From a virus: a stretch of DNA of 64,000 nt. The position numbers were made by a program, and so were the translations under genes. Position 1 is the stretch's first letter, and the number at the start of each line of letters is the position of its first letter. The notes under the pieces are model-generated. The model made no database searches, was not told the DNA's origin, and saw only the letters and a program-made list of their open reading frames with translations. Location: the IMG/VR virus record IMGVR_UViG_3300015241_000149, positions 2,854 to 66,853 of that record. One strand, written 5' to 3'. Positions 1,682 through 64,000 of the stretch are shown in pieces.

Positions 1682-2020
1682 CTAGCGGAAGCGGTTCCGC
1701 CCACCCTTGCGCGAGTTGCAGGCCCGGCACAGCACCGACGCGTTGGCCTCATCGCTGGAACCGCCCTCAGATCGGCTCACAACGTGATCCAGGGTCAAGC
1801 CGCCTGCTGGTACCGGGTGCGGGTCCACGCCGTGTCCGGGGCAGAGCCAGCCGTACGCAGCAACCCATCTGACGATGACGGTGGCGCGCAGCTTCTGGTG
1901 TGGCCGGCCTAGTCCCCGGTCGTTGGTCTTGGCCTGGTAGCCGGACGCGGCGGGGTGTGCGGCGCAGCGCGCGCCGGTCTTGGTCGGTGTGCCACACACC
2001 AGGCACGGACGCGCCGCCAT
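1682..2020 (-). CDS. HNH endonuclease (packaging-associated type)
   Basis: RPCLVCG...RCAAH N-terminus, LTLDHVV...GG...N..VLCRACNSRKG. Confidence 0.9.
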   Translation of the reverse strand: MAARPCLVCGTPTKTGARCAAHPAASGYQAKTNDRGLGRPHQKLRATVIVRWVAAYGWLCPGHGVDPHPVPAGGLTLDHVVSRSEGGSSDEANASVLCRACNSRKGGRNRFR

Positions 2021-2079
2021 AGCGCCCTCTCCCGCCGTCGTCGGGCCAGAACCTCCCGGCGCAACCTGTGTCCACTGCA

Positions 2080-2108
2080 TTGACAACGACGCCACATACC
2101 GGTAGAGT
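2080..2108 (+). promoter_or_regulatory. SigA-type promoter
   Basis: TTGACA(2080-2085)-17 nt-TAGAGT(2103-2108); shares CGGTAGAGTyCTACyT with the 885 promoter. Confidence 0.75.
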
Positions 2109-5910: not shown

Positions 5911-5918
5911 GGCGAGAG

Positions 5919-7412: not shown

Positions 7413-7569
7413 GGGGTCCTCCTGGAGTTATAGACGTTCGGGATGGGGGGTTGGTTGCTACCGGGTTGCGGTGTCCGCGCCGGATGCCGTCATGGACTCT
7501 AATCCGGCAAGTAGTCCTTCCTCGTGCGCGCGTACGCGCGCGAGGGGACAGGCACTCGCCGGATTAGAG

Positions 7570-7782
7570 GTTAGGGTCCGCACGGTTCCCGGTTCCCGAT
7601 GGTTCCGGGAACTAACGGGAACCAGTTTAGTTAGGGTAGGCACGGTTCCCGGTTCCCGATGGTTCCCGATGGTTCCCGATGGTTCCCGGAACCGGTTCCC
7701 CGGGGGTACCCTCCGAAGGAGGGGGTACCCCGGAACCGACGTGGGCCCGATTGAAGATCATTTATTCAAGATCCGGGAACCG
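7570..7782. repeat. GGTTCCC/GGGAACC repeat cluster, candidate replication origin
   Basis: About a dozen GGTTCC(C) copies in both orientations, 10-bp-period GGTTCCCGAT run, 60-bp-spaced direct repeat (7570/7630), GGGGTACCC palindrome; just downstream of Prim-Pol gene. Confidence 0.75.
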
Positions 7783-11129: not shown

Positions 11130-11403
11130 CCCAGACCCCCGCCCTGTCGTAACGACCCCGTACCGCACGCGGGTCGCCAGCGCGCGCCGCGCGCGCAAAC
11201 GCCTGCTCCCATGCCTTGTAATTCATGTCCAGGCGCAGGTGGAACGCCTTGAACGGGACGATCCCCCGGAAGTGGTCCCACTCGTACATGAGCTCATCGC
11301 GGCTGTAACGGCCACCGGTCCGATTGGGCCTGTCCACATCTGGGGACGGCTCTGTGGATGCGTAGCGGGCGGCCCACTCACGCATCATCTCGGTGGTACT
11401 CAT
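11122..11403 (-). CDS. hypothetical protein
   Basis: 93-aa ORF overlapping both neighbours. Confidence 0.65.
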   Translation of the reverse strand: MSTTEMMREWAARYASTEPSPDVDRPNRTGGRYSRDELMYEWDHFRGIVPFKAFHLRLDMNYKAWEQAFARAARAGDPRAVRGRYDRAGVWDG

Positions 11404-14107: not shown

Positions 14108-14131
14108 GGGTTTAACCTTTCGGTGTGTGAG

Positions 14132-14171
14132 AAAAAGGGGTACGGCGGCCCGGTTCGCACCCGGGCCGCCG
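14132..14171 (-). terminator. intrinsic terminator-like hairpin
   Basis: CGGCGGCCCGG/CCGGGCCGCCG followed by a U-run on the - strand. Confidence 0.55.
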
Positions 14172-14192
14172 CTACTGAGACATTCGGCCCAG

Positions 14193-14675
14193 TCACCAGG
14201 GCCGAGCGCCACCCCCCGCGCTCACCGGAGCCTGCTCGGGCGCGTTCCATGCGGCACCGTCGCGATAGACCAGTTCCACCGCCGCCATTTCCGCGTCACT
14301 GGGCTCGTCACCAACCGCTCCGGCATTGGGCTTGCCGGCGTTGAGCACCTTTACCCTGGCCACGATCTCATCGCCGACCTTGGTCACCGGCGGCTGCGGC
14401 TGCTCGCCCTTGGCCGCTCGGGGGTTGCGGACCCCACGCAGGATCGCGGTGATCGCGCCGATGAACCTTTCCTCCAGGTGTACCTCCCCGGTGGCCGCGC
14501 CGGAGCAGATCAGAACGTCGGCGATGACCGGCAGGTTGACTCCGTCAAATCCGGTCGCCTTCTCTGGCGCGTGAAACTCCTTGATCCGGAACACCAGGAG
14601 AACCGGGCCGTCGACGGCCAGTTCTTTCAGGTCCAGGAAACCGCCGGAGGTCTTGATTGCCTTCTGTAGTGCCAT
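14193..14675 (-). CDS. putative ssDNA-binding protein
   Basis: Position next to exonuclease/helicase, beta-rich core, flexible tail ending in PW. Confidence 0.5.
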   Translation of the reverse strand: MALQKAIKTSGGFLDLKELAVDGPVLLVFRIKEFHAPEKATGFDGVNLPVIADVLICSGAATGEVHLEERFIGAITAILRGVRNPRAAKGEQPQPPVTKVGDEIVARVKVLNAGKPNAGAVGDEPSDAEMAAVELVYRDGAAWNAPEQAPVSAGGGARPW

Positions 14676-14790
14676 TCCCATCTCTCTTCTCTTCTAGGTG
14701 GGTCATTGACCCGATCTGACACGCTGATCTCAGCGTGGGTCCTTTATCGGCACACCGTGCCGCGTCCAGTCCTTGGACACCCCTTCGGGG

Positions 14791-16399
14791 CTAGTCAACG
14801 TCGTGTCCCGCCTCTCGAAGCCGGTCCTCAAAGTTGGCCAGGTCGTGAAGGTCATCCAGGCTGAAGAACCGGAGAAGCCACGCCGCCAAGGAATCGTCAT
14901 CGTCGGGGTCCACGTGGGGTGCCGGCTGTTCGGGGTTAGTCATGCTGTTCACCCCGGATCACACGCGCGGCAATCCAGGCAGCCCGGTTGGTTGTCGGCA
15001 TGGCGCGCAGGACACGCTCGGCAAGGTGATTAGCGGGATCGCACATGGGACAGGGCAGTCCGGTACTGACCACCTTCGTTCCGCCGCAGTACTCGCACAC
15101 AGAGGATTGCTCCTCTTCAGCTGACTGCCACGACGCGAACACCTGGATGGCCGTTGAGCACGTGGGACAGGTCAGCTGGGCGAGCTGTACCGGGGGAGTT
15201 GGAATGTTGGGGCTAATCAAGGCTGCTCACCCCCAGCCCGTCAGCGGTCCAGACCCGCGTCATCCGACCTCGGTGCACCGGGCACAGATCCAGCGAGTCG
15301 GTCTTGTGCAGCGCCTGAAACTCCCAACCCATCGCATCGGCCATGGCGCGCAGCTCGGGCGTGGTCATCCGCCAAGTCGCGTGGCTGCCCATCACCGCCG
15401 GGCAGTGCGGATAGTCGCAGGTGATCTCGGAGGTGTAGGTGACGATGGTGGCACTCATCCGGGAGGCTCCTCTGATACCGCGATTGCCCAGTACTGCACC
15501 GGGTGCGCGCGGGCTAGGGTCATGAGCACGTGAGGGCACGGGGCGTCGGGGATCTGGCGGTTCCGGTAGCGGTTGTTGAATGCCGCCGAGCAGGACTTGT
15601 CGCAGAATCGACGCTGGCGGTAGTTGGTCAGCTGCTCGCCCGGCCGACGCTCCAGGGGGGCCAGGCACTGCGCGCAGATCTTCACCGGGTCTCACCGCGC
15701 TGGTCCTTGTGGCCGGGACACCAGTCCAAGATTTTGCCGGCGAGGTTTCCGTGGTGGGCCCATCCCCAACCCATCTCGATGGCGTACTCCCGCAGGTACG
15801 AGACGTTTAAGTCTTCATGGGTGTCGAGGACGGTGTTCAGGTGGTGTTCACAGCTGGGCGCATCGCAATACAGGGTGACGTTGACGCCTACCAGATTCCG
15901 GGTGCAACGGATCACCGGGTCTCACCCCGCTCGAACAACGCGATGCACTTCTGGAGCACCGTCCGGAGCGGGACGCCACAGTTCGGGCAGTTGATCTCCG
16001 CCTTAGTTGTTGCCTTGGCCAGTTCCGCCCGAGCCGCATCCCGCTGGGCCACCGCCGCACCCCACTCCTTCCTCAGCGCTATGACGGCGTCCGTGAGCCT
16101 CAAGATGGTCTGAGCGTCTTCCACGGTGGTCATGCCGCCCTCCTACGCCCACGAGCTCGCCCGGCCCGCACATGGCCACTGCGCGGGCGTTCGATGGAGA
16201 TGGGCACCCGTTCGGCGTCGCGCTTCTCGATGATCACCGCGAGCACGCCCACCATGAAGTCCATGCCGGTGGCCAGGGCGTAGCCGTGCGCGCAGTCCAC
16301 GCAAAGCTTCTGCCAGTCGTCCATCGAGAACAGCTGGGCGGTCGATCCGCACCGGTGGCACGGGCTGTCGAACGCGATCATCGCTTGGCCTCCTCCCAT
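14791..16399 (-). CDS. run of small, mostly Cys-rich hypothetical genes (14791-14943, 14936-15220, 15213-15458, 15455-15685, 15682-15915, 15912-16133, 16130-16381)
   Basis: 4-8 nt overlaps; CxxC motifs in most. Confidence 0.6.
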
Positions 16400-21400: not shown

Positions 21401-22536
21401 CACTTCCTCACCCAATCAGTCATCGGCTCACTCACGTCGGGTCCTCTTCACCGTCAAGGCAGGCCGGCAAACCGAAGAGTGGTGTCGGCAGATTCCAAAT
21501 CTTGATTCCGGTGTCTTTCCGCCACTTCAACGGGAGTTCAGTCTTCCTGGACTGGCCGGTCGAGATACTCATCCTCTCCAGGTTGACTCCGCACAATTTA
21601 CAGAAAGTCCAGACCCAATATCCGTTGCCTGACTTTTCCGTCTTGCTGTGGGGGCAGTTCCTGATTTGCGCGTCCTTGGCTGACTCGCCCATCACGCCGC
21701 CCTTGTCTTGTAATGGATGACCGCGCCGACCAGCGTCTTGGCCAGGATGTAGGCGCCGGCCGCCAGCCCCAACCCCAGGCCAACCCCGACCGCGATCCCG
21801 ACGTGGGTCCAGCCGTAGCGGCTCACTGGCGCGCCAACCACGTGCCCAGCGGCGCACCGATCAAGGCCCCGAAGAACACGCACGCAATGACCCCCTCGGG
21901 TGAGTTCCATGCCGGGCTGGGGAACAGGTGCTGAAGGAACAGCTGGGTGCCGGCGACGCCCACGAACACGCCCAACAGCACAGCCACCTTGATCAAAGTG
22001 ATCATCTGGCACCCAGTTCGAGGTAGTCGATGTGGCGGTGACCCACGCCGGGGTGGTAGTAGGTCGGTACGCCCTGGCCCTGGCCGGCCCGAATCTGCAC
22101 CTCAGCGCGCCCGTCGGCGCCGAACCCGCAGCCGGTGTAGCGATGGGTGAGCCGGCCGCCGACGGTGTGGTAGGTCAGCAGGTAGTAGCCCAGGTGCTTG
22201 CCGTCGATGTCGATCTGGGACTCGAACAGCATCGGCTCGTCCAGCGCGGCGACGGCGACGGTAACCCAGCGGGGCTCGAACGCATCCCGCAGCTTGGCCA
22301 CCAGCACGGCCAGCAGGAACAGCACGGTCGGGATCAGGGCAACGACGAGCAGCACGTTACGAATCATGGCGAGCACCTCGTGTACGGCCATCTTGAGTAC
22401 CCCGCTGGTAGCACGACGGCGCCAGGCAGTCTTGTGGCGTGCACGACTGGCTGGAGCGGGGTATTCGCTCGAGAACGCTACGGAGTTGAGCTACGGATCT
22501 CAACGAGTCCGCGCGCGCAAGGATGCGTTCGGGCAT
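18413..22536 (-). CDS. early-region run of ~14 hypothetical genes (e.g. 18413-18712, 18714-18986, 18983-19222, 19215-19691, 19688-20440 coiled coil, 20437-20604, 20597-20803, 20976-21311, 21823-22005 TM, 22002-22368, 22357-22536)
   Basis: Continuous overlapping ORFs with RBSs; no recognisable domains. Confidence 0.6.
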
Positions 22537-22696
22537 TAGGATGTCCCTTGGTCCTCTGGTTGGGGATCTTTGGTAGCCCCCTCCCGTTGAGCTTGTCTCC
22601 AGGAGGGGGCTACCTCTTTTACTCACCGCCCAGGGTCTGGAGGCGGCCTAGCCAGGCTCATCAGCTGTTCAGTCGGGTTCGACTTGTTCAGTGACG

Positions 22697-22731
22697 AGCA
22701 TCTCACGCTGGGGAGCGTGGTGTCAACCTAG
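22697..22731 (-). promoter_or_regulatory. leftward promoter for the early operon, with a structured ~150-nt leader
   Basis: CTAGG-TTGACA-18 nt-GATGCT; leader hairpin GTAGCCCCCTCC/GGAGGGGGCTAC at ~22573-22613. Confidence 0.55.
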
Positions 22732-22825
22732 TACCGCCTGGTCCTTCCACAAGATGCGCGCGCCCGACGGTCGGTATGAGCCGACGGCCGGCATCAGGGT
22801 ACGGCTGTGTGGGTGCGGAGAACGA

Positions 22826-23026
22826 TTACCTAGGCCGACGGGGAGTGCGCTTAGGCGGCGCTAGCTGGCGTTTGAGGTCCGCGACGTCCCAACGGGCGAA
22901 TCCCCCCGGGGTAAACCCGGCTGGCCGCACCCGGCCTTCCACATACCAGCGCCGCAAGGTCTGGGGGGCGACACCAATGGCTCGCGCGGCGGTCTGGGTG
23001 TTGACCCAGGGAGCGGGATCTGTCAT
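22826..23026 (-). CDS. MerR/BldC/Xis-like HTH protein
   Basis: VNTQTAARAIGVAPQTLRRWYVEGRVRP...TPGGFARW; upstream GTTGTGC direct repeats. Confidence 0.85.
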   Translation of the reverse strand: MTDPAPWVNTQTAARAIGVAPQTLRRWYVEGRVRPAGFTPGGFARWDVADLKRQLAPPKRTPRRPR

Positions 23027-23149
23027 GGAGCCTCACGGTGACAGGTGGCGTGCGAGTTGTGCAACCTTAGCGTGTGTTGTGCGGTTGACACACTGCCCGG
23101 TACCCTCGGCGAAAACCCCCATCCCGATCCTCTGAGGAGCATTACTCCC

Positions 23150-24226
23150 ATGGCTTCGCGTCCCTCTGTCCCGCCGCTGCTCGCCAACCCCGACTCGGCC
23201 AAGCTCATCGCTACTCTCATCGACACCCAGGCGCACATCATCGAGCGCGATGGTGACGCCGTCGGTACCGGCCTGGCGATCCTGCTCAAGACGCTCTCTA
23301 CCCAGATCCTGGACATGCACAACGTCAAGTCCTCAGGCAACGGCGCGTCGGCGCACTCCTGGGAGAACTGATGGGCTTCTGGTCCAAGACGGTCCGCAGT
23401 ACGCACCGGATGAACGAGCGCGTCCCCACCGGTGAGACCGGGCGCAACCTGACCCAGGCATCCAGCGGCTACGTCATCCGCAAGCCCCGGTCCAAGCCGG
23501 TGAAGGCCCACAAAAGGGAGAAGTAGCCTTGTCCCCAACCAAAAGGAAGAAGCCCCCCGCGTCGCCGACCACGCCCGTCAACTGGTCGGAGCTCTCAACC
23601 GGTGAAATCCTGGCGCGGTACCCGGAACGGTTCTTGGCGTGCCGCGTCCAGCACGCGTGGAACCCTGAGCCGATCTGGGACCTACTCACCCCGACGGTTA
23701 AGGAGCGCCAGCAGATCTGTACCCGGTGCGCGTCGGTGCGCAAGCAACCCCTGGACTCCCAGTTCCGCCCGATCCAGGCCGCCACCATCGACTACGCGCC
23801 CGGTTACCTCACCCCGAAGACCGGTCTGACCCGGGGTGATTTCCAGGCGACGCACTGGGAACGGGACTTCCTCAAGGCTTTCGATGCCGGCCGGGTGCAC
23901 GCGCAGGGATCCTTGGAGTGACCGGCCCCCGACCCGATGCCCAACTGCGAGCCGTCGTAGTGGAGCGCACCAACCGCCTGAGTCTGGAATTCGTGCGGTT
24001 CTGCCTGTATGGCGCGGTCATCCTGCATTTCGCCGTTGTCGGGCTGCTCGGCTACTGGATCTACGTCCACATCGGGCCGGGGCTATTTTTTGGCTACGGC
24101 GTCATCGTCACGGTGGCGTGGGTGACCTGGCTGCGCGCCGTCGAGTTCCATCGAGCTTTCCCCGGCGCCGAAGACCAGATGCAGGTCCGCTCGGACGGCC
24201 CGGCCCGGCTGCGGAGAGGCGAATGA
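23150..24226 (+). CDS. four hypothetical genes (23150-23371, ~23371-23526, 23529-23921 CxxxH/CxxC, 23918-24226 2-TM)
   Basis: GAGGAG RBS before 23150; coupled ORFs leading into the second terminase pair. Confidence 0.65.
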
Positions 24227-24738
24227 GCTCTCTGGCGAACGAGGACGGCACCCCGCCGCGCGACGGCCAAGGCAAGTTCATGATCTCTCCGGAGTCCCTG
24301 GAGCGCGATGCCCAGGCCGCCCGGCTGCGAGCCTCTGGTTGGTCGGCAACCCGGGTTTCGAATCACCTGGGCTACGGAAGTCGACAGAACGTGGACCGGG
24401 CCGTCCGGCGCGCCATGGACCGCATCATCGTGCCGGCGATCGAGGAGGCCCGCAAGTTGATGCTGGATTCCATCGCCGAGCAGGCGGAGACGCTCCTGGA
24501 GATCCAGCAGGCGGCCATCGCCGACGGCGACCTGACGGTGTGGCTGCGTTCGGTGGACCAGTTCGGCAAGTTGGATGACCGCAAGGCCCGCCTGCTCGGC
24601 CTGTTCGCCCCCGACAAGATCATGAACCTGAACGGCCGGGGTGAGCCTGAGGTGCCACCGGCACTGATCGAGAACGCCCGCAAGATCGAAGAACAGGCCG
24701 CCAAAGAGGAAGCCGAGCTGAATGGGCGCTCCGACTGA
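24223..24738 (+). CDS. second small terminase-like HTH protein
   Basis: RDGQGKF, RDAQAARLRASGWS...LGYGS..NVDRAV HTH, helical core, RKARLLGL; overlaps the terL-like gene. Confidence 0.7.
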   Translation: MSSLANEDGTPPRDGQGKFMISPESLERDAQAARLRASGWSATRVSNHLGYGSRQNVDRAVRRAMDRIIVPAIEEARKLMLDSIAEQAETLLEIQQAAIADGDLTVWLRSVDQFGKLDDRKARLLGLFAPDKIMNLNGRGEPEVPPALIENARKIEEQAAKEEAELNGRSD

Positions 24739-26317
24739 GTACGTACCCGCGCTGTATGGGCCGCCAGGCTCCCCAGAGATCGACCGGATCCTGGACAAGA
24801 TCGGGTACGGGCTGCTCGACCTGCCCCACTACCGGCGGCTCTACACCAAGCATGATCCTTTGCTATTCCACATGTTGTACCTCACTCCGCCCAATGACGA
24901 GCACACCTTCATCTCGCCAGAGACCGGGCGCGACATCCACCTGAGCCAGTTCCACATCGACGCCTGCCAGCGCGCGCTGGGTTGGCGGGGCAATTTGGGG
25001 TTCGCGCAGCATCGGCATTTCGATGTCGCGCCCCGTGGCGCCGGGAAGTCCACGCTGCACTTCAAGGCCAATCCGCTCTGGGCTCTGGCGCACGGGCACC
25101 GCCGGTTCATGTTCGCGTGCGCGTACAACGACACCCAGGCCGCCCGGCACCTGCGCAACCTGCGAAACCTATTCACCGGCAACGAACTGCTACAGCGGGA
25201 CTATCCCGAGCTCTGCACGCCGCGCAAGTCCACCGACAACGAGTACCACGCTGAGTCGGGCGCGGTGATCATGGCGTACGGGATCGGGTCAACCAACCTC
25301 GGTGCTAACGTGCGCGGCCGGCCTGATTTGATCTTGGTTGATGATCTTGAACCGGCGGAAGGCAGCGTTGGCTACTCGGCGTACCAGAAGTCGCAGCTAC
25401 AGTCCGCGCTGGTCAACGGTGTGTTCGGGATGAATCCCAACGCGGCTGTGCAGATGTGCGGCACGGTGACCATGTACGGCTCCATGGCCCATGAGGCGGT
25501 CTGGCATGCCCACGGCCAGGAACAGGACTGGATCCGCGAGCAGAACATCGACGTGCACTACTACTCCCCCATCGTGTTGGGCGCCGACGGGCGCGAGGAG
25601 TCGTTCTGGCCGGCCCGCTACTCCCTCGATGAGCTCAACCGGATGCGCTACGGCGCTAAGGACGGTGGCCCCACCCGGGATTGGCTCCTCAACTTTCAAA
25701 ATAACCCGCGCGCTGCCGAGGATGGTCTGTGGGCTCCTGGTGACGTGACCGTGGTTGAGGACGCGCCTGAGGGCTTGGACGCCGGTTCGGGTGGGGTGAC
25801 CGTGGTGGACGCGGCGAACCGACCCAGGGTGACATGGCGGGTGCTCTCGATAGACCCGTCGGTGACCGATGGCAAGCGCTCCGACTACACCGGCATCTCC
25901 ACGGTCGGCGCGACCATCCACGGCCGGGCGATCATCGAAGACGCCATCGGGATACGCGGCACCCCGACCGACCTCAAGGCGATTCTGTCCCGGGCGCTGC
26001 GGGAGAACGGCACCATCTCAGACGTCGTCGTGGAGACCACTCAGGGCGGCCATTGGGTGCTTGAGGCAATCGTGGGGATCTGCCGGGAGTTCGAGGTGCG
26101 GCTCTGGGAAGTCAAGCCGTCGCTGAGCAAGCACTCCCGTTACAAGCGCTGGGTGGATCTCTACCAGACCGGGCGTTGCCTGCACGACGGGGAATTGCCG
26201 GAGCTGACCGTGCAGCAGAATAGCTACCCCCGTAATGAATTCGATGATGTCATGGACGCTAGTCTTATCGGAGTAGAGAAGGTTCTTGGCCTCACCGAGG
26301 GGGTGCGGGTCTTATGA
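24722..26317 (+). CDS. second large terminase subunit
   Basis: Walker A APRGAGKST, Walker B LILVDDLE, CGT coupling motif, nuclease SIDPS / SDYTG / VVET / DDVMDA. Confidence 0.9.
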   Translation: MGAPTEYVPALYGPPGSPEIDRILDKIGYGLLDLPHYRRLYTKHDPLLFHMLYLTPPNDEHTFISPETGRDIHLSQFHIDACQRALGWRGNLGFAQHRHFDVAPRGAGKSTLHFKANPLWALAHGHRRFMFACAYNDTQAARHLRNLRNLFTGNELLQRDYPELCTPRKSTDNEYHAESGAVIMAYGIGSTNLGANVRGRPDLILVDDLEPAEGSVGYSAYQKSQLQSALVNGVFGMNPNAAVQMCGTVTMYGSMAHEAVWHAHGQEQDWIREQNIDVHYYSPIVLGADGREESFWPARYSLDELNRMRYGAKDGGPTRDWLLNFQNNPRAAEDGLWAPGDVTVVEDAPEGLDAGSGGVTVVDAANRPRVTWRVLSIDPSVTDGKRSDYTGISTVGATIHGRAIIEDAIGIRGTPTDLKAILSRALRENGTISDVVVETTQGGHWVLEAIVGICREFEVRLWEVKPSLSKHSRYKRWVDLYQTGRCLHDGELPELTVQQNSYPRNEFDDVMDASLIGVEKVLGLTEGVRVL

Positions 26318-27082
26318 GGAGGGTCCACCCGCGCGACGGTACCGACGCCTTCTGCACCTGCCCGGCCTGCGGATTGCTAGGTAGCCACCTGATCATCAAG
26401 CGCGGCTTCCACGTCGGGGGCCTGCGGATTCGGCCTCACGACGGGGCGCTGGTTTCCGAGGCTCCCTACACCCAGCGCCAATGCCTGTTCTGTGAGCGGA
26501 AGTGGGAGACCCTGTGGTGATAGACGTCTATATAGCTCTGATGACGCTATCCCTTATAGCAATGTTCTGGGCCGGTTACCTGATCGGGCAGAAGCACTCG
26601 GCCGTCACTCCCCCACCAGAATCTAAGTCAGAGCCTAAGATGGTGTCCGTCCAGAGCCTGTATAGAGGAAGACTGGTGTGGTACCCCGTAAAGGGCGAAT
26701 GGAATTCTGGGTATATCTATGAGCAGACTGACCCAACATGCCAATATTACACGGTGGAACCCAAGCCCAGAGGCCGGGGCCCCTGGCCCCGAGTGGCGCG
26801 CGCTGATTTACGACTACAGGGCATTCACCCATTGTTTGAGCCGGCGCCCGCATTGAGCCTAGTGGAGTTCGAAGAAGAAATGGACAAGCCGTGAGCAGGT
26901 CAACGAGCAAGGTAGTCAAGTCCCTACGACGCAACGTGACCGAGCTGAACCAGCTCAAGAACCGTCCACCGGCGGGCCGGGATCCCCAGGAGTGGCATCG
27001 GGAGTGTCAGCGCGAGGCTGTGCTGCACGCGTCGGCGGTACTTCTGATCGCGTGTCCGGACGCGTTGGGCACCCGCTACTAG
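26314..27082 (+). CDS. three hypothetical genes (26314-26520 zinc finger, 26517-26894 TM, 26891-27082)
   Basis: Coupled ORFs; CPACG..H / CLFC. Confidence 0.6.
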
Positions 27083-27632
27083 CCAGCCAGCGCTCCCGGG
27101 CCGCGCGGATGGCCTGCATGGGCGTCACGAGGCTGCCTTGCGGTGCCGGCCGCGCTGTCCGCGCTCAGACGTGCTCGTCGTAGGCGGCCCCACAGCCGGC
27201 GGCGCAGACGTAGTGGTGGATGAGGTATCCCTTGCGGTCGTAGCTGGATCCCGCCAGACGCCAGATGTGGTCATCGTTCGGGCCGCGATTCGGGCAGAGC
27301 GCGTCCGCCGGAGCCAGCGTTCCGTCCGCCACTTGAGGTAGTAGAACGCGATGATGTCCCTGTTGCTCGGGAGGTCCGCGTAGTACTGTCTGCGGCTGCG
27401 CTGTTGACTCATCATCCCGCAACTCCCGTCCTAACGGAAAAGTGATCATTATGGGCTCCACAGTGCCAAAGGCCGAATGTCCGGACGCGTTACGCGTGTT
27501 CTACGCCGCGTACCCCGAGACAGCCTACCGAGCGGCACGGGACCACCAGTGCGACTCGATCAATCTGTGTACCCACTGCTACCAGCCCTTCCCCTGCTCG
27601 ACCCGACAGTGGGCGCTGGAGTACCTCGGCGA

Positions 27633-27902
27633 CTAAGCCTTTCCCTCGCGCGGCTCCACGGTGCGGCTCACCATCTCCCGACTGAGCAGCGCCGCGCGGG
27701 CCAGGGCGGTCTGGGTGAGGTTGTCCGGTCGCCCCGTCTGCTGCCCGAGGTGGTACGCCTGGATCAGTAGCGTGTAGAGCTGGCCGCGCTCCGAGGTGAC
27801 CTTGCGCTTGCTGTTCCGCAGTGACCGCCCCACCTTCGCAATCTCGGTCAAGAGCTGCTCGGCGAGCGCTGCCGGCTCTTGGCCTTCGCTGTTCGTGCTC
27901 AT
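27633..27902 (-). CDS. HTH regulator (repressor-like), probably leaderless
   Basis: LTQTALARAALLSREMVSRTV; TAGACT -10 seven nt before the ATG. Confidence 0.7.
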   Translation of the reverse strand: MSTNSEGQEPAALAEQLLTEIAKVGRSLRNSKRKVTSERGQLYTLLIQAYHLGQQTGRPDNLTQTALARAALLSREMVSRTVEPREGKA

Positions 27903-27962
27903 ATGGGTGAGTCTACCCTGACCTACCACCAGGTTGACAAGACGCTACTCGGTTGACAGTAT
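27903..27962. promoter_or_regulatory. divergent promoter/operator region
   Basis: Rightward TTGACA(27934)-17-CAGTAT; leftward TAGACT; two GGTTGACA boxes. Confidence 0.65.
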
Positions 27963-27966
27963 GAGT

Positions 27967-28025
27967 GGGGCGGCTCGGATGCCGAGGTTTCTCGGTCTTG
28001 GGATGGCGCCCATCCGAGCCGCCCC
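27967..28025 (+). ncRNA. 5' hairpin RNA element at the predicted transcription start
   Basis: 15-bp perfect stem, inner CCGAG/CTCGG hairpin, unpaired TCTTGGGATGG. Confidence 0.45.
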
Positions 28026-28076
28026 TTCACCCTTGCGGACCATGGAGCACACACACATGAGCACAACTGATCTGCG

Positions 28077-28398
28077 CGTGGGGAGTTCGATGACTGAGCA
28101 GGAGTATTGGAACCAACAGCTCGTTGAGGCCGAACAGGCCATGGCGCACGTGCCTAGGGACTCTCAGTCCTTCGTGCGGGCGTACGACCGCTGGAGTCGG
28201 GCCACCGCCGAGCTGACTCAGGACAAGAAGGAGGGAGAGCTCCGCAAGATCCTGCCGCTGACCGACGACGCTCCTGAGCTGGATGAACTCGAAATCATGC
28301 TCGAGGTGCAGCGCCAGCTTGAGGTGCTCGACCCCGAAGGGACCCGCCGCGTCCTGACCTACTTCATCAGCCGCTACCTGCTCCCCTCGGAGGGCTGA
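28077..28398 (+). CDS. hypothetical protein (start approximate)
   Basis: Helical ORF; several possible starts. Confidence 0.6.
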
Positions 28399-28399
28399 G

Positions 28400-28762
28400 G
28401 TGTTCCGCGACGCGATCGGCGCGCTGTCCTTGATCCTGCTGGGTGTGTTGGTCCTGGCCGTGGTCATCTTCGGCGGCTGGAAACTGCATTGGTGGTTCCG
28501 TGGCCAGGAGGCTCAGCTGGGCGGACAGACCAACCGGGGCAGCTACGGATTCCAGCAGGCGCACATGGACCAGACAACCAGCCTGATCTCCGACATCTCC
28601 CGGATCGACGCCCAAATCGCGGCGGCGGACCCCGCCCAGAAGCCCACGCTGGCGGCTCAGCGCACCGCCGAGGTAGCCGAAACTTGCCGGCTGGCCCGCG
28701 ACATCCAGAACCCTCCGGCAGACATTCTCAGCTGGCACACCCTGAACTGCTCCGCTCCGTAA
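28400..28762 (+). CDS. single-pass membrane protein
   Basis: N-terminal TM helix, two Cys in the C-terminal part. Confidence 0.75.
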   Translation: MFRDAIGALSLILLGVLVLAVVIFGGWKLHWWFRGQEAQLGGQTNRGSYGFQQAHMDQTTSLISDISRIDAQIAAADPAQKPTLAAQRTAEVAETCRLARDIQNPPADILSWHTLNCSAP

Positions 28763-28783
28763 CCCCAAGGACCAGGCCATCCA

Positions 28784-29344
28784 ATGATCAAAGCCCTAGT
28801 GTCTGCCGGCATTGTCATCAGTGTGGGATTGCTCGTCGGCTGTGACGCCACCCCCTCAGGCCAACGCCAGGAGAACGCTGCTCAAGCCGGCATCACCACA
28901 CAGCTGGTCACCAACCAGCCAATCCCTAATATCGGGTACAGCCAGATGCGACAGAACCTGATCGAGATCGAGACGGCCGAGGACAAAGGCGTACAGACCA
29001 CCTCGTTCATCTTCGGCAACTTCTCCGCAGACCCGGTGCAGATCTGCCCGTCAATCGGCGTCCCGATCCCGAACACGGCGAGCCTGTCCAACCCGGAACA
29101 GGCCACCTATACCGGCAGCGCTACCTATACCACCCCGCAGATGGACCCGAACGGGGTGTACGCGCCGAGCGCGTCGAGCGGCACGTTTGTGATCTGCGTA
29201 GGCGCGGACGGCAAGCCCAACCCGGTCTACGCCGAAGGCAACGTGCACACCGTGTTCGGTCCGGCGGTGTGGAACCGACAGACCCACTCGGTAGAGATGA
29301 CCGGCCCGGCATCGTTCAAATTCACCGCAAGCCAGGGACGCTGA
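28784..29344 (+). CDS. lipoprotein
   Basis: Lipobox LLVG-C. Confidence 0.8.
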   Translation: MIKALVSAGIVISVGLLVGCDATPSGQRQENAAQAGITTQLVTNQPIPNIGYSQMRQNLIEIETAEDKGVQTTSFIFGNFSADPVQICPSIGVPIPNTASLSNPEQATYTGSATYTTPQMDPNGVYAPSASSGTFVICVGADGKPNPVYAEGNVHTVFGPAVWNRQTHSVEMTGPASFKFTASQGR

Positions 29345-29345
29345 G

Positions 29346-29573
29346 ATGGCCTTCGGACGGCGTCAGACCCGCGAGGAGTTCATCGCCCCGAGCGCGCACC
29401 ACGTCGAGTTCCATGAGGCCAAGCGGGCGAAGGCAGCCCAGGACGCCGCCGACAAGGAAGCCAAAGCCGCCAAAGCCGCGCTCAAGGCTGCCCAGGTCCG
29501 GGAGCAGGAGGCGGAGCGGCAGCGTCGAGCCCTGGCCAAGGCAATAGCCGATGAACTCGAGGGCAGGTTCTGA
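29346..29573 (+). CDS. Ala/Lys-rich coiled-coil protein
   Basis: 75-aa ORF in operon. Confidence 0.6.
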   Translation: MAFGRRQTREEFIAPSAHHVEFHEAKRAKAAQDAADKEAKAAKAALKAAQVREQEAERQRRALAKAIADELEGRF

Positions 29574-29745
29574 GACCGGCCAATTCGACCTACCGACCGG
29601 GGACGCGAATGACGCCTGACGACATGACTCCTGATGAGCTGCTCGACTACCGGGAACGGCTTCTCGATGAGACGGATCAGGACCAGCTCTGGCGCAACTT
29701 CCAGCACATCGCCACGTTCGAGCACAAGGTGGATGAAAGGCCCTG

Positions 29746-30369
29746 ATGACTGACACCCGTGTGTTGTTCGCCTGCGTGTGGGCTACGGCGCTGATGGTCG
29801 CCGGTGGTTGTGGTTCCGCGTCCACTCCGGTGCAGGACAATGCCGCGCCCGTCGCACCGCAGCCGCACACCATCAAGACCCTGCCGCCGAGCTCGCACGT
29901 CACCGGCCTGCCCTACCCGCCGCGCTGCGTCATCGAAACCTCGAACGGTCACGCACTTCCGGATGTCTCGTGCACCCCCGGCGCGGTTACTTCGGGCGTC
30001 ACCCAGGCGAACATGCATTCGACGATCTGCAAGACCGGCTGGACCGCGACCGTCCGGGCGCCGGAGTCGGAGACCGGGCCGGTCAAGAAGACCGCGATCA
30101 CCTCCTACAGCGAGACAGCCCTGAGCTCAACGGCAATCGAGCTCGACCACCTGGTTCCCTTGGAGCTGGGCGGCAGCAATGACACCGCCAACTTGTGGCC
30201 AGAACCGAGCGACCTACCAGGCCAGGGCTTCCGGAACACCAAAGACAACGTCGAGAACGACATGCGCAAGGCGGTGTGCTCAGGGAAGGTTAGCCTGAGC
30301 GCGGCACAGACCGCCATCTCGAACAACTGGGGAACAGCTGAAGCGACGGTAGGCATCGGGGGGCACTAA
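29746..30369 (+). CDS. lipoprotein with HNH-like nuclease domain
   Basis: Lipobox VAGG-C; ELDHLVPLELGGSNDTANLWPEP...KDNVEN. Confidence 0.75.
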   Translation: MTDTRVLFACVWATALMVAGGCGSASTPVQDNAAPVAPQPHTIKTLPPSSHVTGLPYPPRCVIETSNGHALPDVSCTPGAVTSGVTQANMHSTICKTGWTATVRAPESETGPVKKTAITSYSETALSSTAIELDHLVPLELGGSNDTANLWPEPSDLPGQGFRNTKDNVENDMRKAVCSGKVSLSAAQTAISNNWGTAEATVGIGGH

Positions 30370-31212
30370 TGGAAGCGCTGGATGTCCTGGGCTCCTCGCT
30401 GGTCTACCCCGCTGGTAGGTGTGGGCGTCGCTGCTCTCACGTATCCATGTGGGTGCCATCGTGTGCATTGTGCAGGTCAGGCGCCCGCACCTATCGGAAA
30501 GTCCCTGAGGGCAAATGATGGGAGCGCTGGATGTCCTGGGCGCCGTGACGGCCTACCTGCTCGTTGGGGCTGTGTTCGCGCGCAACCAGTCCCGCCGTTG
30601 CTTCAGCGCGGCCTGCGCCAGATGGAGCGGTTCAGACCAGGCAGCAAGACGGAGCCGAGTGACCCAGCGCTCCTACCAAGAACGGCTTGCGCTGTGCGTG
30701 TTGGGTTGGCCTGTGGTGGCGCCGGCCCGGCTGATCTACCACTTCGCCTCGGCGCCGGTAGGAGACCTGGAGGCGGCCGCGATGTTCTATGAGATCAACA
30801 AGCGGGTAGAGCGGGATGCCTTGCGCCAGCGGCTTCAGATCATGAGGGAGATCAGCTGATGGTCACACTTGGCGAGTACGAGGAATACCGACTCGTGCTG
30901 AACAAATCAGACCTTGTTGAGCCTCACCCGCCGTCATTCGAGGGATACCAACACGTGCTGAACAGGCCAATCAACGTCGGCCGGTCAGAGACCCCAAACG
31001 AGGAAAAGGCCCCCAAGACCCTAGGCTCGCACATCCTCTGGGCAGGCGCCCTGTCCTTGGCCATATTCGTCGGGTTGGTGGGTGTTATCGGTGCCATCGG
31101 CGGGATCTTCTTCCTTTTCGCGCACGTGAGTTGGGTGTGGGGAACCCTGGCACTGATTGGGGCTCTGTCGATCGTGTCGGGCGTTTCCGCGTACGCGGCC
31201 CTGGAGCTGTGA
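30369..31212 (+). CDS. small Cys-rich ORF (30369-30518) and two membrane proteins (30518-30859, 30859-31212)
   Basis: TAATG/TGATG overlaps, hydrophobic segments. Confidence 0.6.
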
Positions 31213-31328
31213 TGACGGCGCACGCTGGGACAAGCCCTGACCAGGACGCATGACCAGCGTTTATCCCCGGATCTGATGTCAACCTGCTACCGTTCATGAA
31301 CCTGTCCCCGATCACAGGAGATCGCACC

Positions 31329-31769
31329 ATGGCGAACCATCGCCTTCGCAAGTCCCGCCACCGCTCCGTTGGACGCTTCGCGCTGGCCTTCGCCGGCATC
31401 GGCGCCGCCGGTGTACTCAGCGGAATGAACGCTCCCGTAGCCCACGCCGCGACCCCCACCGCCACCGTGACGCTGACCAGCTTCCACACCGCGCTGGCAG
31501 ATCCCCCGCACCGTGGTGGCGACCGTGACCGCGACAACTGCCGCGACGAACGGCACGGTTTGGACAACGACCGGTTCTGCCTGCCTCAGCGCCGTCACAT
31601 TCGCCACCACCACCACCACTTCGGAGGTTTCGGCGGTCACTTCGGCGGGTTCGGCGGCCACCACTTCGGGGATCACGGCGAGCACGGACACCCGGGCCAG
31701 CACGACGGTGACGGTCACGGACACCCGAGCGGTCACGGCGAGCACCACGAAGGACCGCACGGCCACTGA
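31329..31769 (+). CDS. secreted His/Gly-rich protein
   Basis: AGGAG RBS, signal peptide ending AHA, HHHHHFGGFGGHFGG and HGEH repeats. Confidence 0.75.
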   Translation: MANHRLRKSRHRSVGRFALAFAGIGAAGVLSGMNAPVAHAATPTATVTLTSFHTALADPPHRGGDRDRDNCRDERHGLDNDRFCLPQRRHIRHHHHHFGGFGGHFGGFGGHHFGDHGEHGHPGQHDGDGHGHPSGHGEHHEGPHGH

Positions 31770-58437: not shown

Positions 58438-59685
58438 TCATGAATTCGCTGACGACGGTCCGAGTGAGGTGCTGGTCAGCGCGTTCTCGTTGGCTTGCTG
58501 CGCGGTGACCGAATCCAAGTACTTGTCCCCGCCCTCACGCGGCGGAAGATCTTCATCCTCGCGGATCTCGTTGGCGTTCAAGACACCCATCTCGAACATG
58601 ACCCGGCTCCACTCGGCGCGGGCAATTGAGTCACCGCGCAGCAACTGGCGAATCGAGTACCGGGCTATCAACCCGTCGCCGAGGAGCTCTTTGGTGACCC
58701 GCTGCTCGGTGGTGGCCAGCCAGGTGGGGTGCAGGTCGTACATGACGAACCCCAAGCCCTGCTGCTCCAGGCCGGTACCCCAGGTCGTCGACTTCTCGTG
58801 GTCGAAAAGCAGGAATGGCGGAACGCCGTAGTAGCGCCCGAGCTCGGTGAGCTGGAAACGCCGGCTCTCCAGAAGCTGCGCGTCGTCGTTGGGCATCGTC
58901 AGGCTCTGGAACTTCGCGCCGGAGTCCAGCACGGCCACCCGATGCGCCCGAGCCAGCCCGCCGAGCTTCTCCTGCCATTGCACTTGCAGCTTCTCGGCCT
59001 GCTGTTGGGTCAGCCGCTGCTCGGTCTGCAAGATGCCCGAGGTCAGGTTGCCCGAACCGAACAGGGTTGAGGCGTACTTCTCCGCGCCCAGAGCCAGCCC
59101 GATGCCTTGGCGGGCCATCTTGATGGGGCTCATCCCGCACACGCCGTCGTATCCCAGGCCCGGGAGGTGGAAAATCTCGTTCGAGGTCATCGCGTGGGTG
59201 CGGCCGGCATCGTCGGTGACCTGAAAGACCTTCCCGGACGGGTTCGCCGGCGTCGGCTTGGCCTTTCCGGGGATCACGTGGTTCGGCATGATCGGCATGA
59301 GGTACTGGATGGTGCCGTTGCCCCGTTTGAAGATCTTTTGAGCGTAGAAGTTGCCCCACAGGGTGCGGTGGACGTAGCTCAGCTTCCAGAACTCCAGTGG
59401 GGTCAAATCTGGGTGCGGATTGTCCAGAAGTGAGTGCTCGACGGGCTGTTTGGTGGTCTTGTCGTAGACATTGAGCGGCAAAGCGCCGCCCAGACCCGAA
59501 ATCAGGCTCACACAGCGCCATACCGCCGAGAAATTGAGCGAAGTGAGCTCGGTGACGGCCATCCCGGCGTCGGTTGGTGACCCTCCGAGCACCGAAAGCA
59601 GGCTCAGATCGGTCAGCGGGACGGCCGGATTCTCGATGTTGAGACGCTGCTCGGCGTCGCGCGGGGCCCAACGGAACAGGCTCAC
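58438..59685 (-). CDS. portal protein, HK97 family
   Basis: AVWRCV..IS, GNFY, G.SPI, QLLESRRF, GVPP, NEIR..E.LPP..GGD. Confidence 0.95.
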   Translation of the reverse strand: MSLFRWAPRDAEQRLNIENPAVPLTDLSLLSVLGGSPTDAGMAVTELTSLNFSAVWRCVSLISGLGGALPLNVYDKTTKQPVEHSLLDNPHPDLTPLEFWKLSYVHRTLWGNFYAQKIFKRGNGTIQYLMPIMPNHVIPGKAKPTPANPSGKVFQVTDDAGRTHAMTSNEIFHLPGLGYDGVCGMSPIKMARQGIGLALGAEKYASTLFGSGNLTSGILQTEQRLTQQQAEKLQVQWQEKLGGLARAHRVAVLDSGAKFQSLTMPNDDAQLLESRRFQLTELGRYYGVPPFLLFDHEKSTTWGTGLEQQGLGFVMYDLHPTWLATTEQRVTKELLGDGLIARYSIRQLLRGDSIARAEWSRVMFEMGVLNANEIREDEDLPPREGGDKYLDSVTAQQANENALTSTSLGPSSANS

Positions 59686-60130: not shown

Positions 60131-61765
60131 TCACCAGATGTTGAAGCCGCCAGTGTCGCCGAACCCGTGACCGTGCTCCAGGGCCCAACCCCGGCCTTCC
60201 AGGGCCAACAACGCGGCCACGAACGGGGAAATGGTCCGCGCGTCCTTGCGCACCACCCGCTGGTAGTACTCCGGCATCCCCGCCGCGCGTTCCTCGGCCG
60301 ACGGGCGGCGCTTGCCGTGCGCCAACGCGGTGGCCGCCGCCGCCCTGGACAGCTCCTCGCAGCCATCGTGGGTGAACATCTCGTTCTCACCCTTGGCCCG
60401 ATGCGCGGTGGTGAACCGCTCGATCACCGCGTCCATCCGAGCTTCGCTGTTCAGCGGGAAGCTCATGATCCGGATCCGCTCCTCGCCCTGGTAGGTGGGC
60501 GGCTGGTCGTAGAGCCCAGACCAGGTGTCGAGCTCGTCTTGCCAACCGTGCGGCGCGGCGAACATCACGATGACGTCGTAGGCGGTGAACGCGTCCTGTA
60601 CCGCCTCGTGCACCTGCGGACGTGGGATAACCCAGTCGGAGGGAGCGCCGATTGGCTTGTCCCACGTCCGCAAGTGGGTGGTGAACCCGTCGGAGAGCCT
60701 TGCCGCCACCAGGGACGTCGAATCCCGGTTCTGCGAGCCGTGAAAGCCGAGCGCGACCTGATCCCCGGGCTTGAGGCTCAACTCGCCCCGGGCCTGCGCC
60801 ACCCACTTGATCATGTCGACCGCGTCGCTACTGCCGACGCTGATTTCGTTGAGGAAGAACCGCCGTGCCTCACCCTCGCCGGTCGCCGGGTCCCGGATCT
60901 CGGCGATGATGCGCTCAGGGCGCACCCAGCCGCCCCGGGAGATGGACGAATCGCCGTAGACGTACTCGACCTCGCGCGACAGGGCCGCGTCGTCATCCAG
61001 GTCGATGCGGCCTCGCGGCGGGCGGTAATCGATGTAGACCCCGGGGGCCTTCGCCTGATACGTCAGCTGCGCGACCGAGCCCTGCCCGGGGTCCCAGGCG
61101 TTGGTGATCTCCAGCCAGCGGCCGTCCATGCCGGCGGCGTTACGTTTCATCGCCCGAGCCATCTTCAACCCACCCGAGGTCTCCGTCATCAGATGCGACT
61201 CGGTGAGGGTGAAAAACGTCAATCGGGCGCCCAATCGAGCCCTCGCGGACGCCGTTACCGGCTCTATTCTCCCGCCATCTGGCAAATTAATTCGGGACTC
61301 TCCAACGTCCAACCCCGGTGTCGAACTGACCGGACCACCGCGCAGCATAGCCACGATTGGCCGGAACGTATTGTCGGTCTGTTCCTCAGCGTTTCCGGCG
61401 CACTGGATCCACGGAGTGGGCATCGGCATTCCGACGGGCTCCCCAGCGGCATCCCAGCCAGCGAAACGGACAGGCCCGAGGGCTTCGGCGCAGACACGAG
61501 CGGCTCCCAGGGGGTCTTTTCCCCACTTCTGGGGTCGAATGAGCGCCGCACCGTAGTACTGGAAGGCCAATGAGCCCATTTCGGGAGTGGCGTCGGGGAT
61601 CAGGCGGTAGGTCTGGAGGATATGGCGCCACATCTCATCGGTAAGCAGATAGGGCCGCCCCTGACGCGTCCCGTCGGGCACGATCAGGTTGTCCTCGATC
61701 CAGTCCCCGACCTCGTACCCCAGGCTCGGGTACTCGCCCTTACGTCTCGGACCACGCCAGGGCAC
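60131..61765 (-). CDS. large terminase subunit (canonical position) with degenerate nuclease motifs
   Basis: RPQKWGKDP Walker A, EEQTDNTF, ITNAWDPG, RRFFLN; GFHGS / FAAP / TISP where Asp is expected. Confidence 0.9.
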   Translation of the reverse strand: MPWRGPRRKGEYPSLGYEVGDWIEDNLIVPDGTRQGRPYLLTDEMWRHILQTYRLIPDATPEMGSLAFQYYGAALIRPQKWGKDPLGAARVCAEALGPVRFAGWDAAGEPVGMPMPTPWIQCAGNAEEQTDNTFRPIVAMLRGGPVSSTPGLDVGESRINLPDGGRIEPVTASARARLGARLTFFTLTESHLMTETSGGLKMARAMKRNAAGMDGRWLEITNAWDPGQGSVAQLTYQAKAPGVYIDYRPPRGRIDLDDDAALSREVEYVYGDSSISRGGWVRPERIIAEIRDPATGEGEARRFFLNEISVGSSDAVDMIKWVAQARGELSLKPGDQVALGFHGSQNRDSTSLVAARLSDGFTTHLRTWDKPIGAPSDWVIPRPQVHEAVQDAFTAYDVIVMFAAPHGWQDELDTWSGLYDQPPTYQGEERIRIMSFPLNSEARMDAVIERFTTAHRAKGENEMFTHDGCEELSRAAAATALAHGKRRPSAEERAAGMPEYYQRVVRKDARTISPFVAALLALEGRGWALEHGHGFGDTGGFNIW

Positions 61766-63458: not shown

Positions 63459-63914
63459 TCATACCGCCTCATCCACCGCCGCGACCCGGTGCCCACGCTC
63501 CACGACGACCTCATCGCGGCGCCAGTCAGAGAGCTCATCGTGCGCGGTTTCCCAGTTCAACCGCAGCATCGCCGACGGGGTGAGCCCCAACTGGCCCTCC
63601 AGCTGTCTAGCCTCGCTGACCAGATTGGACTGTGCCATCGACAACTTGCCGATCATGTTCTCAGCGGCGATGGAGATCCGTACGTACCGAGCGACGATGG
63701 GCCCAATGTCCAGCTTGATCAATTCAGCCGCCGCCGGTGTGCGCCACACCCAGGACCACTTTCGCATCTCCATGGCGGAGCACTCTTCCAGTGGCCATTG
63801 CGGAATAGGGCCTGTGTAACCCTCATTCGGAAGGACCGCTCGCGCCATAGAGGGGGCATTCGTACGGCGCCGTAGAGAAGGGTCCTTGCTCAGTGGACCT
63901 CGGGATCCGCTCAT
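63459..63914 (-). CDS. small terminase subunit
   Basis: RGPLSK...RRRTN, P.WPL, W...WRTP.A, E.R.LE..LGLTP..M.RL.W; AGGAGG RBS. Confidence 0.88.
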   Translation of the reverse strand: MSGSRGPLSKDPSLRRRTNAPSMARAVLPNEGYTGPIPQWPLEECSAMEMRKWSWVWRTPAAAELIKLDIGPIVARYVRISIAAENMIGKLSMAQSNLVSEARQLEGQLGLTPSAMLRLNWETAHDELSDWRRDEVVVERGHRVAAVDEAV

Positions 63915-64000
63915 TTCGACACCTCCTTTGTTTTCTATTCAAAACCCGTATTCTGCGTTATCGAATTGAATACCCGTACATATCGCGTTGCAGCGATAAG

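Follow-up and report, generated by a model that had tools for sequence, protein, structure and literature searches.

The prevailing view assigns each phage a single terminase and couples that terminase to a single portal. Why, then, should a phage genome encode a second pair of small and large terminase subunits (TerS and TerL) with no portal gene beside it? The question is raised by a soil actinophage, the 66,853-bp IMG/VR virus record IMGVR_UViG_3300015241_000149 (label G000; linear class, CheckV completeness 97%). The window analyzed here is the stretch of 64,000 nucleotides from base 2854 to base 66853 of this record, and coordinates refer to the window unless stated otherwise. A canonical module of terminase, portal, and capsid genes (TerS1-TerL1-portal-capsid) lies on the minus strand, and the second large terminase, TerL2, is encoded approximately 35 kb from it on the opposite strand, preceded by its own small subunit, TerS2. 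We consider it probable that the TerS2-TerL2 pair is a capsid-independent, sequence-guided, ATP-dependent nuclease module with a single origin. For the clade of phages to which G000 belongs we put forward, as a tentative proposal, the fuller mechanism in which TerL2 cuts the DNA of its own phage and has thereby permitted the nuclease of TerL1 to decay.

The gene for TerL2 (24722..26317, plus strand, 531 amino acids) encodes an intact T7-like large terminase that is without a portal neighbor and without the C-terminal tail of its family. The motifs APRGAGKST, LVDDLE, CGT, SIDPS, VVET, and DDVMDA are all present, and the protein matches phrog_38 ("terminase large subunit") with an E-value of 7.4e-52. 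No Pfam family was found above threshold, the best being Terminase_6N at an E-value of 0.094. In an alignment with 19 relatives, the ATPase residues of the Walker A, Walker B, and coupling motifs (K109, D207, D208, E210, G247, and T248) are invariant and are kept in TerL2, as are the invariant D378, D388, D508, D509, and D512 and the nearly invariant E438 of the RNase H-like nuclease domain. The AlphaFold model of TerL2 (pLDDT 84.9, pTM 0.73) has the two-domain fold of terminases, and its best match in the PDB is the T7-like terminase of PhiV-1 (8DGC_E, E-value 1.3e-19). A PDB search with the TerL2 family profile recovered T7 gp19 and the PhiV-1 terminase, and comparison of the model showed that RuvC resolvases also resemble the nuclease domain in fold. 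A scan of viral contigs using the single TerL2 protein returned nothing, and alignment-based scans were required there. TerL2 is confirmed as a real, intact large terminase, and its lineage is other than that of TerL1 (phrog_38 and PhiV-1-like versus phrog_19179 plus phrog_9 and HK97-like).

The gene for TerS2 (24223..24738, plus strand) encodes a helix-turn-helix (HTH), small-terminase-like protein of 171 amino acids and overlaps the gene for TerL2 by 17 nucleotides. In Thermobifida phage P1312, the product of the gene immediately before the annotated TerL, P1312_002, has 35% identity to TerS2 (E-value 4e-12). With hhalign, TerS2 was found to be homologous to the upstream open reading frames (ORFs) of portal-linked relatives of TerL2 (probability 97.9%, E-value 4.8e-13). 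A TerS2 homologue is located directly upstream of TerL2 in all eight of the portal-less loci first examined. The curated TerS families provided no match: nothing was found in Pfam, and the sole PHROG match was to phrog_645, which is labelled "Rnase E". No similarity to the TerS of the MiniFlayer type was detected. The likeness to the P1312 protein, the hhalign homology, and the conserved position support the assignment of TerS2 as a small terminase.

The neighborhood of TerL2 was searched for head genes in three ways. PHROG scans of the plus-strand ORFs from 23045 to 31769 gave zero structural matches, and tblastn of G000 with four portals and three capsid proteins of the TerL2 lineage gave no match. 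Hidden Markov models (HMMs) made from 97 portal and 70 capsid ORFs were run on 8 genomes and found no portal at an E-value of 1 or below and no relic of a portal or capsid gene. The possibility that a decayed head module lies beside TerL2 was rejected, since these models show no relic. An integrated satellite similar to MiniFlayer was also rejected, since TerL alone is common to G000 and the satellites. A first-pass annotation, made from the letters of the window alone, had described an HTH TerS-like gene overlapping a complete TerL of a lineage different from that of TerL1, far from the head module and with neither portal nor capsid gene after it, and had also called the nuclease of TerL1 degenerate. 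All of these descriptions are borne out.

The lack of a portal sets TerL2 and its closest relatives apart from the remainder of the lineage. A portal is encoded downstream of TerL in 101 of the 107 relatives first collected, and within 500 bp in 89. In a tree of 114 rows, the eight portal-less proteins all fall on one side of one branch (SH-aLRT 99). Additional portal-less proteins were found by a scan seeded with portal-less proteins. In a second tree of 62 rows, for which 43 portal-linked rows were kept and 64 near-redundant ones were dropped, the 17 portal-less proteins are again on one side of one branch (SH-aLRT 98), as sister to the portal-linked proteins. Left out of this tree were L261 and L262, which are weak partial matches, and L249, which is identical to L060/L248. 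Because the portal-less proteins are confined to one branch, the trees indicate a single origin for the subfamily.

Each of the 17 portal-less proteins retains its ATPase and nuclease motifs, and the two close pairs for which dN/dS was measured show that TerL2 is under purifying selection. The value for the pair G006-G007 is 0.118, with 0.21-0.25 for the portal, capsid, and TerL1 of the same two genomes, and the value for C361-L085 is 0.269. At least 11 records have the cassette in an equivalent genomic position. Five further records (G036, G037, G042, G044, and G045) contain a portal-less TerL2-like gene and are without a phrog_9 terminase.

The C-terminus is what the subfamily has lost. Of 104 portal-linked relatives, 99 end in a basic and aromatic tail, and the median length after the motif at the DDVMDA position is 26 residues; none of the eight portal-less proteins first examined possesses such a tail. 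TerL2 of G000 ends 18 residues past DDVMDA with no late aromatic residue, and the tails of G006 and G007 are 16 residues long and likewise without a late aromatic residue. The replacement tails are short and mutually unlike. The short-tail rule is not absolute in the later portal-less set, where L253 ends in GEYVA and L260 has a tail of 41 residues. Portal binding in T3, lambda, SPP1, and P22 is attributed to the C-termini of TerL (PMC13595956).

The canonical large terminase, TerL1 (60131..61765, minus strand; phrog_19179 and phrog_9), is HK97-like, and it adjoins the portal of the canonical module (58438..59685, minus strand; PF04860, E-value 5.4e-77; phrog_12), an S78 protease, and an HK97-type capsid gene. 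No Pfam family was above threshold for TerL1, and a sequence search of the PDB gave chance matches only. Its model (pLDDT 85.3) is closest to HK97 TerL (6Z6D, E-value 2.6e-19). The ATPase is intact, and the three aspartates of the nuclease triad are replaced by H342, A404, and S513. In the model these residues are found at the end of the strand 336-343, just after the strand 397-403, and where the last long helix, 513-530, begins; in terminase nucleases of the RNase H type, these places are occupied by the metal ligands. None of the three sites is acidic in TerL1 or its close relatives, and relatives at 51-57% identity have GFDGS, FADPxxWQ, and IDAFVAA at the triad columns. Judged by the absence of the triad from its sequence, the nuclease of TerL1 is dead.

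The loss is confined to one group of phages. A census of 80 viral loci gave 62 with the D-D-D triad and 18 without it, and the copy in C361, a contig from a metagenome-assembled genome (MAG), is also without it. Within the clade the first site is occupied by H, T, F, L, I, or R and the second by S, T, N, F, or A, and such variety indicates relaxed constraint. The ATPase motifs do not vary in the Asp-less clade, where the lysine of Walker A and the glutamate of Walker B are invariant, and the conservation of TerL1 matches that of the portal and capsid proteins. In a tree of 41 TerL1 proteins, the Asp-less ones (20 rows) form one side of one branch (SH-aLRT 100) with G000 deepest; read from this tree, the loss of the triad is one event. 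The candidate small terminase of the canonical module, TerS1 (63459..63914, minus strand), gave sub-threshold matches to Terminase_7 and Terminase_4, and its position is conserved in six of the seven clade genomes by clustering and in all seven by tblastn. No nuclease family was found among the small genes between TerS1 and TerL1. As a separate observation, intein-like inserts (Pfam PF14528 and PF05204) occur just after Walker A in several canonical TerL genes, namely those of G003 (L231), at approximately 29.8-32.4 kb, and of P0066, P0080, and P0084-P0088.

Is the decay of TerL1 connected with TerL2? The first-pass annotation had proposed that TerL2 may cut concatemers while TerL1 translocates, and had suggested co-occurrence of an Asp-less TerL1 with the TerL2 family as a check. 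The TerL2 profile was searched in 32 whole records, nine of them Asp-less and 23 Asp-keeping. TerL2 was found in four of the nine Asp-less records, the other five being four fragments of 15-36 kb and the genome G004. It was found in none of the 23 Asp-keeping records, including the seven that are at least 90% complete. With G000 and C361 added, TerL2 is present in six of the seven large Asp-less genomes, and those that carry it span the clade, including the deepest member, G000. The structural genes of these genomes are shared and the non-structural ones almost not at all; the only non-structural gene common to six of the seven is TerL2.

A chimeric assembly, which had been named as a possible cause of the two-terminase layout, was rejected because five relatives have the same layout. 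In C361, G005, G006, G007, and G009, TerL2 is 29-39 kb from TerL1 on the opposite strand. The C361 contig (69,366 bp) was assigned to a Nocardioides MAG by binning and contains homologues of TerL1 (60%) and TerL2 (41%) on opposite strands; its portal is split over the contig ends, which implies a circularly permuted assembly. Four soil-metagenome runs (X1-X4) have contigs that cover parts of 21500-29500, with no single piece spanning the region and some bins uncovered in X2-X4. Short contigs bridge the TerS2/TerL2 junction and the junction of TerL2 with the downstream gene in X1, possibly the source sample, and the TerL2 stop codon is bridged in X2, which is from a different study. Some contigs of X1 and X2 join 23206 to 24664 through 29 other letters, a form without the small upstream genes and most of TerS2, and other contigs skip 946 bases at 28393-29340. 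These joins and skips may be strain variants or, at 90% likeness, other organisms.

The ends of the genome and a third nuclease gene also bear on where the packaging cut is made. Three independent contigs (G000, G005, and G009) each terminate 65-118 bp upstream of TerS1, immediately ahead of a TACGGGT word that they share, and GTCA starts the left end of G000 and both ends of G009. These contig ends are probably real cos-type termini, and the last 86 bp of the record, just upstream of TerS1 (63915..64000), is the candidate physical end in G000. The position of these contig ends suggests, indirectly, that defined ends are set by the TerS1 side. An HNH endonuclease of 137 amino acids (1682..2095, minus strand; PF01844, E-value 1.8e-08, 34.8 bits against a cutoff of 21.4; also PF14279) is an alternative source of the maturation cut, and its gene is approximately 4.6 kb from TerS1 across the joined ends. 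HNH genes are found in G004, G006, G007, G008, G009, and most Asp-keeping relatives, usually a few kilobases upstream of TerS1; the distance is 3.3-3.4 kb in G004, G006, and G007. In HK97, cos cleavage is promoted by a separate HNH nuclease, gp74 (PMC9410871).

TerS2 and TerL2 are accompanied by other small genes. The first conserved member of the cassette (23918..24226, plus strand) encodes a small protein with two hydrophobic segments (2-TM), and its stop codon overlaps the start of TerS2. The product groups with that of an ORF at the same place in G009, and equivalent 2-TM ORFs are located upstream of TerS2 in C361, G005, G006, G007, L085, and G003. In several of the cassette-bearing genomes a small conserved protein is also encoded upstream. 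At its start, a Cys-rich ORF of 68 amino acids with two CxxC pairs (26314..26520, plus strand) overlaps the TerL2 stop codon; the family scans matched none of their families to it. Its place right after TerL2 is taken in C361, G006, and G007 by an excisionase-like HTH ORF, and a tblastn match is likewise placed in L085. Among 101 portal-linked loci there were no matches to the 2-TM ORFs at an E-value of 1e-3 or below, and none to the small upstream protein or the excisionase-like ORF. A tyrosine-integrase-like ORF is found approximately 1.8 kb upstream of TerL2 in G006 and L085, and with neighbors similar to integrases and excisionases the cassette is embedded in an integration module in some genomes. 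No integrase was found among the ORFs scanned in the G000 window.

The gene map of G000, whose GC content is 58-69%, was built from GC3 and from PHROG and Pfam family scans of a portion of the ORFs. The late block is on the minus strand, from approximately 63.9 to 34.5 kb, and contains TerS1, three small genes, TerL1, the PF04860 portal, the S78 protease, the HK97-type capsid gene, tail genes with a tape measure of 1689 amino acids, and an endolysin. The cassette is held by a plus-strand block from 23045 to approximately 31.8 kb, nearly all of it small genes without a family. A minus-strand block from 22.4 to 4.4 kb encodes an exonuclease, a helicase, endonuclease VII, and a Prim-Pol primase, and an additional plus-strand block is found at the left end of G000. 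Between 31984 and 33987 the coding strand is ambiguous, a minus-strand ORF of 667 amino acids with a match to phrog_23524 competing with plus-strand ORFs of 356 and 231 amino acids. The same segment has the highest GC skew of the window (0.176) and repeated tblastx matches to 27.5-31.2 kb of C361. A gene for a RuvB-like AAA+ ATPase (record positions 1057-2259, to the left of the window) is near the left genome end and is kept in five of the seven clade genomes. The sole tRNA found by ARAGORN is a tRNA-Ser (anticodon GCT) at 4289-4364 on the minus strand.

The reading that we favor can now be stated in full. A single-origin subfamily of T7-like large terminases has probably become uncoupled from the capsid: its portal neighbor and C-terminal docking tail are lost, and its DNA-recognition partner TerS2, the ATPase, and the nuclease are retained. 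In the Asp-less clade the most likely substrate of TerL2 would be the replicated DNA of the phage itself. TerS1 and TerL1 would dock on the portal and translocate, and the cuts beyond the ability of TerL1 would come from TerL2, probably together with the HNH endonuclease. We infer all three of the critical steps, namely that TerL2 does not dock on the portal, that it cuts the DNA of its own phage, and that it allowed the TerL1 nuclease to decay. We favor this reading for the clade because the sole known loss of the triad is inside a cassette-bearing lineage, and dozens of HNH-bearing relatives that are free of the cassette have kept the triad. A wider composite combines two ideas: a natural split terminase, in which translocation is the sole task of the HK97-like TerL1 and cutting the sole task of the portal-less T7-like TerL2 with TerS2 as its guide, and a single-origin group of capsid-free TerS-TerL cassettes that have spread among 58-71 kb actinophages as free-standing, sequence-guided, ATP-driven nucleases. 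We regard this composite as rather unlikely to be right in every part.

Several observations weigh against a division of labor between the two terminases. The presence of TerL2 and the loss of the triad map to one branch, so the co-occurrence represents one evolutionary event and not six independent ones. The first-pass annotation had named a degenerate TerL1 without TerL2 as counter-evidence, and this combination exists: G004 (L211; 69,151 bp, CheckV completeness 100%) has an Asp-less TerL1 and no TerL2. Its TerL1 is 76-77% identical to those of C361, G005, and G006, and G004 is nested inside the clade, which implies a secondary loss of TerL2 with the dead TerL1 nuclease retained. The cassette is also found together with an Asp-keeping D-D-D phrog_9 terminase in at least five records (G003/G038, G039, G040, G041, and G043), where the two are 27-43 kb apart on opposite strands; the presence of the cassette alongside intact canonical terminases implies that it did not arise to replace a dead nuclease and that such replacement cannot be its main function. 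Among clade members TerL2 is much more divergent (31-49% identity, with the pair G006-G007 at 91%) than TerL1 (59-95%). The physical ends are apparently beside TerS1 and not TerS2, the HNH endonuclease alone could supply the cut in the Asp-less genomes, and a pure nuclease role leaves the retained ATPase motifs of TerL2 unexplained. The division of labor thus stands in part: the intact second pair, the lost triad, and the co-occurrence agree with it, but G004, the HNH gene, the cassettes beside D-D-D terminases, and the single event do not.

Two side observations concern the same genomes. In G004, the slot that would correspond to the cassette (3628-14970 of that genome) holds a tyrosine integrase, an FtsK/SpoIIIE-like protein of 710 amino acids, a YdjM-like membrane protein, and a repressor-like regulator of 406 amino acids. 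The clade is strongly mosaic: C361 shares 95% identity with G006 in TerL1 but 99% with G007 in the portal, while the TerL2 proteins of G006 and G007, 91% identical to each other, are each only 36% identical to that of C361.

In a rival explanation, the cassette is a conflict module. A terminase captured from small phages of the DTR type or from capsid-forming satellites (the lineage of Rooney, OscarSo, MiniFlayer, and Mulchroom) would recognize and cut, or mis-process, the DNA of such competitors or parasites; the loss of the TerL1 nuclease would be unrelated, with the HNH endonuclease covering for it. The nearest portal-linked relatives of TerL2 include two known Streptomyces satellites and many contigs of 11-16 kb. 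The cassette resides in a variable, oppositely oriented accessory region, with an integrase adjoining in G006 and L085, and its divergence far exceeds that of the structural genes. Phages whose canonical terminases are fully intact also carry it, it is dispensable in G004, and satellites are described in PMC10690885 as manipulating terminase specificity. However, no target has been identified, the dN/dS values of 0.12-0.27 in the two close pairs carry no sign of an arms race, and TerL is all that MiniFlayer and Mulchroom have in common with G000. The proposal also leaves the sole known loss of the TerL1 triad, inside a cassette-bearing lineage, unexplained. We consider a conflict role unlikely.

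The neighbors of the cassette may point to a different DNA transaction, such as excision or integration, the start of replication, the resolution of branched DNA, or the transfer of DNA across membranes, with the packaging cut made by the HNH endonuclease alone. The 2-TM gene is always upstream, the excisionase-like ORF follows TerL2 in C361, G006, and G007, an integrase precedes it in G006 and L085, and the slot in G004 combines an integrase with an FtsK/SpoIIIE-like translocase. The RuvC-like fold of the nuclease domain is also consistent with such a function. However, a full TerS-TerL pair is not known to act in any of these roles, and full-text literature searches gave no precedent; the ORFs scanned in G000 contain no integrase, and the phage already has endonuclease VII and an exonuclease. 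This explanation appears distinctly unlikely.

TerL2 might instead be a second complete motor that docks on the HK97-type portal through new contacts, either as an alternative mode of packaging or as the real terminase with TerL1 as an accessory. The strict retention of the ATPase and nuclease motifs, the retention of TerS2, and the inability of TerL1 to cut would be explained. It is nevertheless improbable, since the family tail has been replaced by short, dissimilar ones, TerL1 equals the portal and capsid proteins in conservation and keeps its ATPase motifs, the contig ends are beside TerS1, and G004 is without TerL2. Very improbable is the pair of alternatives offered in the first-pass annotation, a relic of recombination or a decoy for Avs-type terminase-sensing defense with no enzymatic role: among solved structures, the one nearest to the TerL2 model is indeed a terminase caught by Avs3 (8DGC) and the cassette is in an accessory region, but the catalytic residues, which neither a decoy nor a relic needs, are kept in all 17 deeply diverged members, dN/dS is 0.12-0.27, and the TerS partner is always kept.

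If the loss of the triad is linked to the cassette, cutting and translocation could be studied on separate natural proteins. Without such a link, the cassette would represent a novel type of accessory nuclease in phages, one that might act in conflicts between phages or between phages and satellites. In either case, the canonical terminase is unable to cut DNA throughout a clade whose phage genomes appear complete, and a widespread, selected subfamily of terminases has probably left the capsid. Terminase genes serve as markers for phages and also trigger Avs-type immunity. Pipelines that equate any TerL with a packaging gene, or that assume one genome per TerL, will misread genomes of this kind.

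A portal-less second terminase was not found described in the full-text literature, judged from search results alone, and the arrangement resembles several known systems in part. The canonical module of G000 is most similar to that of HK97 (TerS, TerL, and the HNH protein gp74) with respect to the fold of TerL1, the PF04860 portal, the S78 protease, the HK97-fold capsid gene, and the HNH gene near the packaging end. However, HK97 TerL has the aspartates of the nuclease site (PMC9410871), whereas the TerL1 clade has none, and HK97 has no second terminase. TerL2 is closest to the T7/T3-type terminases (gp18-gp19 and PhiV-1 TerL; PDB 8DGC and 4BIJ), which are the best matches of its profile and model and have complete ATPase and nuclease motifs. 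Terminases of the T7/T3 type dock on a portal that is encoded alongside them, whereas TerL2 has neither a cognate portal nor the family tail. The nearest annotated relatives of TerL2, all of the phrog_38 lineage, are from the Streptomyces phages Rooney, Gibson, Dryad, and KimJongPhill, the Microbacterium phage OscarSo, and the satellites MiniFlayer and Mulchroom (30-34% identity over 90-95% of the length); in all of these, genes for a portal and a capsid protein come after TerL.

Phi29 gp16 is the precedent for TerL1 as a packaging ATPase in which the nuclease fold persists without catalysis (PMC13595956). Phi29 needs no cut because its genomes are replicated by protein priming at unit length, whereas G000 encodes a Prim-Pol primase, a helicase, an exonuclease, and two possible trans-acting nucleases; no protein-priming polymerase or other sign of protein priming was found among its ORFs scanned. 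Finally, the hijacking of packaging by satellites (the TerS of SaPIs and of phage-inducible chromosomal islands, PICIs, and the capsid-forming PICIs; PMC10690885) is similar in that packaging genes are separated from the capsid genes on which they act. Satellites of the SaPI, PICI, and MiniFlayer/Mulchroom types are separate integrating replicons, the capsid-forming ones with a portal and capsid of their own, whereas the TerS2-TerL2 cassette is embedded at a fixed relative place in phage genomes.

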